IMG/VR virus record: IMGVR_UViG_2651869724_000001
Span: 1 to 7,923 of that record
From: a virus
Taxonomy: Monodnaviria > Loebvirae > Hofneiviricota > Faserviricetes > Tubulavirales > Inoviridae
Reading direction: 5' to 3' (one strand)
DNA length: 7,923 bases
In this document: positions 1 to 1,059 of the stretch, piece after piece
How positions within the stretch are numbered: position 1 is the first letter of the stretch
Layout: every line of letters begins with the position of its first letter
Made by a program: the position numbers and the translations under genes
The notes under the pieces: generated by a model
The model's database searches: none
What the model saw: only the letters and a program-made list of their open reading frames with translations
Told to the model about the DNA's origin: nothing

Positions 1-1059
1 TCATTTTTGCCCCCTGAAAGAAACCGGATTATTACAGGACCATGCAACAACCTTCACGCCGTCCACCTCTCCCTCAAGCATAATATTCAGCCCCCTGAAT
101 TTATTTGCGGAAATCATACGAAGGCGATTATCCGTATCGCGCAGAAAAACATAGTTCCGGTCCCCGTCATTAAAACGCCCTATTACGCACCACTTTTGAG
201 AAGGAGCAGGAGCGGTTTTATTCTCCGGTGAAGGCGAAACATTAACCGACGGCGAAGACGGCGAAGAACGTAACGGCGCTGACTGCTGTGCCTGTTCTGT
301 TTTTTTCTGCGGATTAAAAAAAGGCAAAAGAAAACTAAAGAAGAGATAAACAGAAAGCAATATAAGAAAAATAAACAAAAGAATAACCTGCGGTTTAAAC
401 AAAACCGCCCTTGCGTCAGTTCTTGTTTCCACCGCTCCCTTAACATCATGAGAGCTGTAAAGCGGGTAAATATCTTTACTGTAACGGCAGACATAATTTG
501 AAAGATGCGTTGCCTTTGTGGTTCTGGAACCGTCGAAAACATCAACGCGATAACTTTTATGAGAAAGACCAATCAGTTTTTTCATTCTGAAAGTCTGCTC
601 AATACGCTCACGAAGAAAGCGAGGCAACGTTGTCAATGCCTGATTAATAAGAACAAGGTCGCAGGTTTGCCCCGTTTTTTCATCAGCATAATGGCGATGC
701 TCGGCAGCAAAGATACGGGCATCAGATGACAAAGCTTTATCTGATGTAAAAAAACGATGACACTCATCGAGAATAATTAAATCACCTGGCTGGCAGAGTG
801 ATTTATCCTGATTTCCCTTAACCGGATAAAAATCAGGGGACATAACCCGCTCATTTTCAACATGAATGATTTCACCTGGTGAAATATCATCACTTATCAG
901 TTTGTTTTTATAACAATACTGAATGATTGCCTCATGATTCAGTCCGTATATATTTTAGACAATCCTTCGGCCGGATGCAACAGCCGGAATAATAACAGAC
1001 TTAACCACTTCATAAGATTTGCCAGAACCCGGCACGCCAATATATGCAGTAATAGCCAT
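1..1059 (-). pseudogene. Zot/pI-like filamentous-phage assembly ATPase, interrupted by an in-frame TAA (plus coords 955-957). N-terminal 34 codons lie at 958-1059 and the C-terminal 280 codons at 1-843, in the same frame.
   Basis: Minus-strand ATG at 1059-1057 sits 8 nt after GAGGG and encodes [34 protein letters not shown] (Walker A, GxxGSGKS), then TAA. The same frame continues NIYGLNHEAIIQY... into the listed 280-aa ORF, which carries Walker B (LIILDECHRFF) and a C-terminal hydrophobic segment. Last gene in the pIII-pVI-pI order. The listed 1-843 ORF on its own begins at an internal Met. Confidence 0.65.

Follow-up and report, generated by a model that had tools for sequence, protein, structure and literature searches.

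The stretch of DNA analysed here, referred to as the window, comprises 7,923 nucleotides and is an exact reverse-complement substring of contig JHSK01000037.1 (48 kb) from the draft assembly GCA_001265925.1; this contig is referred to as the source contig. The window has the layout of an inovirus, and it contains most of a prophage integrated at the chromosomal dif site of Escherichia coli, together with the left part of an insertion sequence (IS). The frame of the Zot/pI-type assembly ATPase (zot, the homolog of gene I) is interrupted near its 5' end. The coordinates of the features are listed in Table 1.

Table 1. Positions of the phage genes, zot substitutions, attachment region, and insertion sequence in the window
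Feature	Position	Strand	Remarks
Remainder of the zot frame	1..954	-	317 codons and TGA (3-1)
Second lineage-private zot substitution	114..114	-	GTT to ATT, V316I
5' part of zot, cut short by the stop	955..1059	-	ATG at 1059-1057, 34 sense codons, TAA at 957-955
Causal substitution	956..956	-	C to A on the coding strand; TCA (Ser35) to TAA
DUF2523 (pVI-like minor coat) gene	1071..1358	-	Intact; directly upstream of zot; 95-aa CDS, the same in relatives
549-aa gene in the pIII position	1376..3025	-	Intact; 18-bp tandem repeats; R189S common to sister assemblies
Remaining phage genes	3030..5502	-	56-aa, 82-aa coat-B-like, 111-aa, 398-aa Rep_trans initiator, and 65-aa genes; lengths as in relatives
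Attachment region	6343..6437	.	Two inverted XerC-arm-like sites flanking a GC-rich stem-loop
Left part of an IS1202-family (ISNCY) IS	6443..7923	+	XerC arm 5 bp away; AATAT at 6438-6442 is the target duplication

Organization and surroundings of the prophage

In the source contig and in relatives, the genes follow the order DUF2523 gene, zot, and GspD-type secretin gene, which is the order expected of an inovirus. The zot stop codon overlaps the secretin start codon by 4 nt (ATGA). A divergent 70-aa gene is present on the plus strand of the window. The 18-bp repeats of the gene in the pIII position are located at approximately 1780-1900, and the length of this gene varies in relatives (525, 537, 543, 549, and 567 aa), like the variable g3p linker repeats of other inoviruses.

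Beyond the secretin gene, the source contig has a true dif site, AGTGCGCATAATGTATATTATGTTAAAT, which matches the dif of E. coli at 27 of 28 positions. On the other side of the prophage, a hybrid site, GGTGC(G/A)CATAA-TGTGAC..., is located at 6410-6437 of the window, with the XerC arm joined to phage sequence. This pairing of a true dif with a hybrid site is the arrangement expected of a CTX-type integrative element exploiting XerCD (IMEX). The XerC arm of the hybrid site occupies 6427-6437 and has a C-to-T change at 6432 that is also present in the sister assembly GCA_002075265.1. For the region 6343-6437 as single-stranded DNA, a forked hairpin is predicted (MFE -33.4 kcal/mol, z -8.3 versus shuffles), in which the XerC-like arms are paired and a bulge of 6 nt is left. 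This suggests that integration may occur in the CTXphi manner, by a hairpin of single-stranded DNA. The phage-phage (attP) junction consists of ...CATTATGCGCACT followed directly by GTTATCAGG....

The IS continues beyond the window to about position 2247 of the source contig, and its ends are TGTAACAGC...GCTTTGACA. Its transposase gene (6485-7923) is split into a 187-aa ORF (176 aa from a later start) and a 291-aa ORF. The split is caused by a 1-bp deletion near 7010, as compared with an intact 468-aa plasmid-borne copy (AAGTGTA-AGCACTGG versus AAGTGTACAGCACTGG). It is an old, fixed, and widespread pseudogene, found in 141 indexed blocks. The same IS adjoins dif and hipA in many E. coli without the prophage.

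At 1383-2165 of the source contig, hipA is cut to 260 aa by an internal deletion of approximately 540 bp, compared with 440 aa in JNE21-003; this truncation is common to several other assemblies with the IS beside dif. Beyond the true dif (12521-18708 of the source contig), four genes encoding proteins of 507, 554, 845, and 167 aa replace the LysR-side flank of other genomes. No Pfam or PADLOC match was found for the four genes, and the 554-aa protein had a weak match to the NCBIfam model integrase_1 (88 bits, cutoff 350). The four genes may be an uncharacterised mobile element. In RIVM_C039227, the same position beside the prophage (4095-6670 of its locus) is occupied by a degraded ISNCY transposase gene and a SIR2-family gene, an indication that cargo genes can be carried by IS1202-type elements at dif.

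The interrupted zot frame and its intact relatives

Upstream of the zot start codon, the minus strand reads TTAAGAGGGTGATTT. The full frame has 352 codons, and the premature TAA is codon 35. The setting was as described in a first-pass annotation of the window, namely an in-frame TAA right after the Walker A motif in a gene with a good start at 1059. The ORF list gives two ORFs in one shared frame on the minus strand, 955..1059 (34 aa) and 1..843 (280 aa). The annotation correctly had the frame continue past the stop with the Walker B motif, but its figure of 280 more codons needs amendment: 317 codons follow the stop, and 280 is the length counted from Met73, the first ATG downstream of the TAA. 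The piece starting at Met73 is the only downstream product that gene callers report. With TAA at codon 35, the window has no intact translatable zot frame. The window copy of zot is a pseudogene of the Zot/pI family, and the ORFs 955-1059 and 1-843 should be annotated together as one pseudogene.

The identity of the protein was assessed by profile searches with the repaired or relative Zot sequence, in which Ser was restored at position 35. The repaired Zot matched the Pfam family Zot (PF05707) over residues 6-204 with an E value of 1.3e-22 and a score of 80.7 bits (cutoff 20.3), and the 280-aa fragment alone also matched this family. Matches were obtained to PHROG 197 'Zot-like toxin' (E 2e-76, residues 1-349) and PHROG 1041 'CTXphi Zot-like' (E 3.7e-10) as well. 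The Walker A motif GVPGSGKS was found at residues 8-15, including K14, and the Walker B motif LILDECH was found with D98, E99, and C100 (DECH at residues 98-101). There is a single strongly hydrophobic segment at approximately 223-250 (Kyte-Doolittle maximum of 2.9 over 19 residues, at 225-243), and two Cys are present within the C-terminal 100 residues or so. Zot is therefore predicted to have one transmembrane segment followed by a periplasmic C-terminal domain, and the predicted role of the intact protein is ATP-dependent virion assembly. No NCBIfam model matched the Zot protein, and a sequence search of the PDB with intact Zot gave no match at E <= 0.01. In the phage collection, a near-DNA search with window 1-1400 gave no match, and the best protein identity of Zot was 39.5%, to an uncultured inovirus of the human gut. 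A related-locus search of genome contigs with intact Zot returned 114 pattern matches, none of which was confirmed.

Relatives of the locus were collected from complete E. coli genomes. Megablast with window 1-1400 found 45 places in 27 of 5,426 complete genomes, and at all 45 the annotation is an unbroken 'zonular occludens toxin domain-containing protein'. When 176 nt were aligned with the two copies in E700025, a single base differed, the second of codon 35, which is TCA there and TAA here. On the plus strand, all relatives have G at base 956, where the window has T. With a 57-nt query centred on 956, 27 of 27 complete genomes matched at 98.2% (one mismatch) and none at 100%, and the TAA allele is absent from all 45 copies in these genomes. 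Base-by-base alignment of 10 copies from 8 genomes gave TCA (Ser35) in every case, with the CDS intact at 352 or 349 aa; together with four sister prophages, TCA was found in 14 of 14 copies compared in this way. The single C-to-A change in a TCA codon that the first-pass annotation had postulated was thus observed directly, and the alignment to intact homologs that it proposed as a check gave Ser throughout. It had also held that a sense codon in related genomes would speak against its interpretation. Such a codon instead confirms a nonsense mutation, and what it refutes is only the idea of a conserved stop. The possibility that the downstream ORF is a separate gene with its own start was considered and ruled out, given that every relative has one continuous CDS of 352 or 349 codons.

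The rarity of the allele was also apparent in public contigs. Intact 352-aa Zot sequences occur on 455, 181, 61, and further contigs, altogether more than 700, versus 1-2 contigs for the 34-aa and 280-aa products of the TAA allele. Other disrupted alleles of the same zot gene are present in public E. coli assemblies, with non-partial products of 194 aa and 243 aa. The TAA allele was also sought by exact-pattern scans of species-representative genomes and of metagenome contigs, without a match in either; this is uninformative, as the former collection contains a single E. coli genome.

Age, cause, and expected consequence of the stop

The window differs from the closest copy in a complete genome (JNE21-003) at 6 of 6,439 bases, and closer relatives were found among draft assemblies. 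The pIII-like protein of the window is identical on 10 other contigs, and Zot was intact at 352 aa in all four for which it appeared among the matches listed. The sister GCA_002075265.1 has the same IS, truncated hipA, prophage, and genes beyond dif as the source contig. The two differ at 3 of 13,650 bases, which correspond to the stop at S35, V316I, and V289M of the secretin; the last (position 9886 of the GCA_002075265.1 sequence) is private to the sister. Relative to the source contig, the other three sisters have these two zot differences as well, together with private changes of their own. In comparison with the four sister prophages, the only private changes of the window lineage are S35* and V316I, both in zot. 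The proposal of the first-pass annotation that inactivation was recent and left the other phage genes intact is well supported by this comparison. Judged from these sequences, inactivation of zot is very recent, with just two substitutions since the ancestor common with intact prophages; the downstream frame and the other phage genes are still open because the inactivation is so recent. The sister GCA_050427815.1 has a fresh lesion of its own, a 1-bp deletion in the 111-aa gene (called as 103 aa) at a site equivalent to window position 3823.

A premature stop found in one draft assembly could be a sequencing or assembly error, in which case the true genome would have TCA and an intact zot. The rarity of the allele and the draft status of GCA_001265925.1 are in line with such an error, and the frameshifted transposase in the window could hint at poor quality. 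The transposase split, however, is no error, since the identical 176/291-aa split occurs in many assemblies. The 280-aa product is encoded on two records, JHSK01000037.1 and the Logan assembly of run SRR19671070, which was assembled separately and comes either from another isolate or from renewed sequencing of one strain. Over 3,353 bp, including both the TAA and the linked V316I, the Logan contig and JHSK01000037.1 are 100% identical. Furthermore, substitution errors are rare in consensus short-read assemblies. Because the separate assembly of SRR19671070 has the same allele, a consensus error is an unlikely source of the TAA, and we consider an intact zot in the true genome highly improbable. 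The end of the Logan contig, at the last base shared by dif and attP, is what would be expected if the sample contained tandem copies or a circular replicative form and every copy had the TAA.

Translation would stop after 34 residues and yield a peptide with the P-loop only, which would be devoid of Walker B, the membrane anchor, and the periplasmic domain that would contact the secretin. The window copy would consequently have no inner-membrane assembly ATPase, and no virions would be extruded without another copy as a source of the protein. A further possible effect of early termination is weaker expression of the secretin gene downstream, whose start codon overlaps the end of zot. We infer from the sequence that virion production is lost. 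In M13, hosts that lack a suppressor produce no phage from the gene I amber mutant Q23am, and the fragment that is made has no function (PMC5408679). Since its replication, coat, and regulatory genes are intact, the element would be a prophage disabled only recently and not a long-decayed one.

This expectation would fail if the stop were tolerated, either by readthrough, by a host ochre suppressor, or through a functional shorter downstream product, so that the prophage would be self-sufficient in assembly. The 317 codons after the TAA are still perfectly open, gene finders call the 280-aa ORF from Met73, and gene I of Ff phages has an internal start from which another essential protein, gp11, is made (PMC5408679). 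However, a mutation only two substitutions old is a simple explanation for the frame being open after the stop, and the product of a restart at Met73 would not contain the Walker A lysine that is essential in M13 (PMC5408679). A gp11-like internal start before the transmembrane segment was also considered and rejected; the sole SD-like sequence, AAGGGAG before a GTG at approximately codon 219, is too near to the start codon. As for recoding, a stop conserved in relatives was found in 0 of the 45 complete-genome copies, and the sense codon in all relatives argues against a conserved recoding site. Both release factors recognise UAA, which shows the least readthrough of the stop codons in E. coli. 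Scans of the window for tRNA genes and Rfam families found no tRNA gene, and so no phage-borne suppressor, and no known recoding RNA. Tolerance of the stop is the least probable of the explanations weighed here. A different route to virions would be a real but masked mutation, with pI provided in trans by a further intact copy, either tandem or from a related inovirus, and the genome of the window prophage exported with its help. Tandem copies are typical of the relatives, with a median of 2 places per genome among the 27 genomes and two full copies in E700025, JNE21-003, and RIVM_C039227. The Logan contig ends exactly at the last base common to dif and the phage-phage junction (12372 of the source contig), as it would if that sample had a second junction. 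M13 gene I amber mutants such as Q23am are fully rescued by gene I in trans (PMC5408679), and short-read assemblies can collapse identical tandem copies (PMC7307601). Against complementation, the source contig contains hipB, the IS, one prophage copy, the true dif, and flanking genes, with no second copy, and the Logan contig is unbroken through the TAA, so that no TCA copy of similar abundance is evident. We consider rescue by another copy improbable, to a lesser degree than error or tolerance of the stop.

Overall, the TAA very probably represents a genuine nonsense mutation that arose very recently in one lineage and changed codon 35 of zot from TCA to TAA, disabling assembly of this dif-integrated E. 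coli inovirus prophage. The first-pass annotation had offered three outcomes; a prophage unable to assemble virions is the best supported, an error is unlikely in view of the agreement with SRR19671070, and programmed readthrough is unsupported. The prophage copy in the window should not be counted as virion-competent. This is ordinary gene inactivation, an already known phenomenon of which the present allele is one more instance. Apart from annotation its importance is small. It can be dated and shows clearly how the decay of an inovirus prophage begins, and it may be of use in studies on the silencing of chronic filamentous phage production in E. coli lineages.

Whether the hit in zot reflects host selection for shutting off virion export, not neutral decay, was also considered. 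Both private changes of the window lineage are in zot and the one private change of the closest sister is in the secretin gene, and all are protein-altering, while zot and the secretin gene make up approximately 17% of the 13.65 kb compared. The clustering of recent changes in assembly and export genes is a weak hint of selection, drawn post hoc from three events, and we regard selection as a rather unlikely explanation. If it were true, loss-of-function mutations that benefit the host would preferentially hit the assembly and export module of dif-integrated inoviruses, and replication-competent but non-exporting 'grounded' prophages would result. More speculatively, if integration is CTX-like and hence irreversible, a copy on its own would in any case contribute little to the supply of new phage genomes, and selection on its assembly genes would be relaxed.

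Comparison with known systems

The position of the IS beside the prophage resembles that of ISAjo2-type elements, for which targeting of dif and pdif has been described (PMC10132070); the window IS has such a dif-targeting position, here at the chromosomal dif of E. coli. With CTXphi, the prophage has in common an assembly protein of the Zot family, integration at dif that leaves a true dif and a hybrid site, and, in its relatives, tandem arrays. A possible further likeness is the attachment region, for which a forked hairpin of single-stranded DNA with two inverted dif-like sites is predicted here, as in CTXphi (PMC3442271). The window element differs from CTXphi in encoding its own secretin, and no toxin genes were seen in it. 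To our knowledge, CTXphi has no secretin of its own.

Shapiro and Putonti (2020; PMC7307601) described early stops in genes I-IV in the UPphi group of inovirus prophages from Enterobacterales. These are likewise dif-integrated and usually tandem filamentous prophages of E. coli, some copies of which have core genes, including gene I, split by stops; such copies may be either dead or complemented, as may the window prophage (PMC7307601). In contrast, UPphi is related to IKe and I2-2, whereas the window prophage is not UPphi-like and has a Rep_trans initiator.

The closest functional parallel to the stop itself is M13 Q23am, in which an early stop likewise interrupts the N-terminal ATPase domain (codon 23, compared with codon 35 in the window). 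Ff pI is only a distant relative of the window Zot, matched at the family level, and the two nevertheless share the main architectural features: Walker A at residues 8-15 with K14, a DEC block, a single transmembrane segment, a periplasmic tail with two Cys, and a secretin gene directly downstream (PMC5408679). In M13 gp1, the Walker A motif is 8-GKLGSGKT-15, and K14, D88 and E89 of Walker B, and C90 are essential (PMC5408679); their counterparts in the window Zot are K14, D98, E99, and C100. The M13 mutation is a laboratory amber (UAG) in an episomal phage, whereas the mutation in the window is a natural ochre (UAA) in an integrated prophage.
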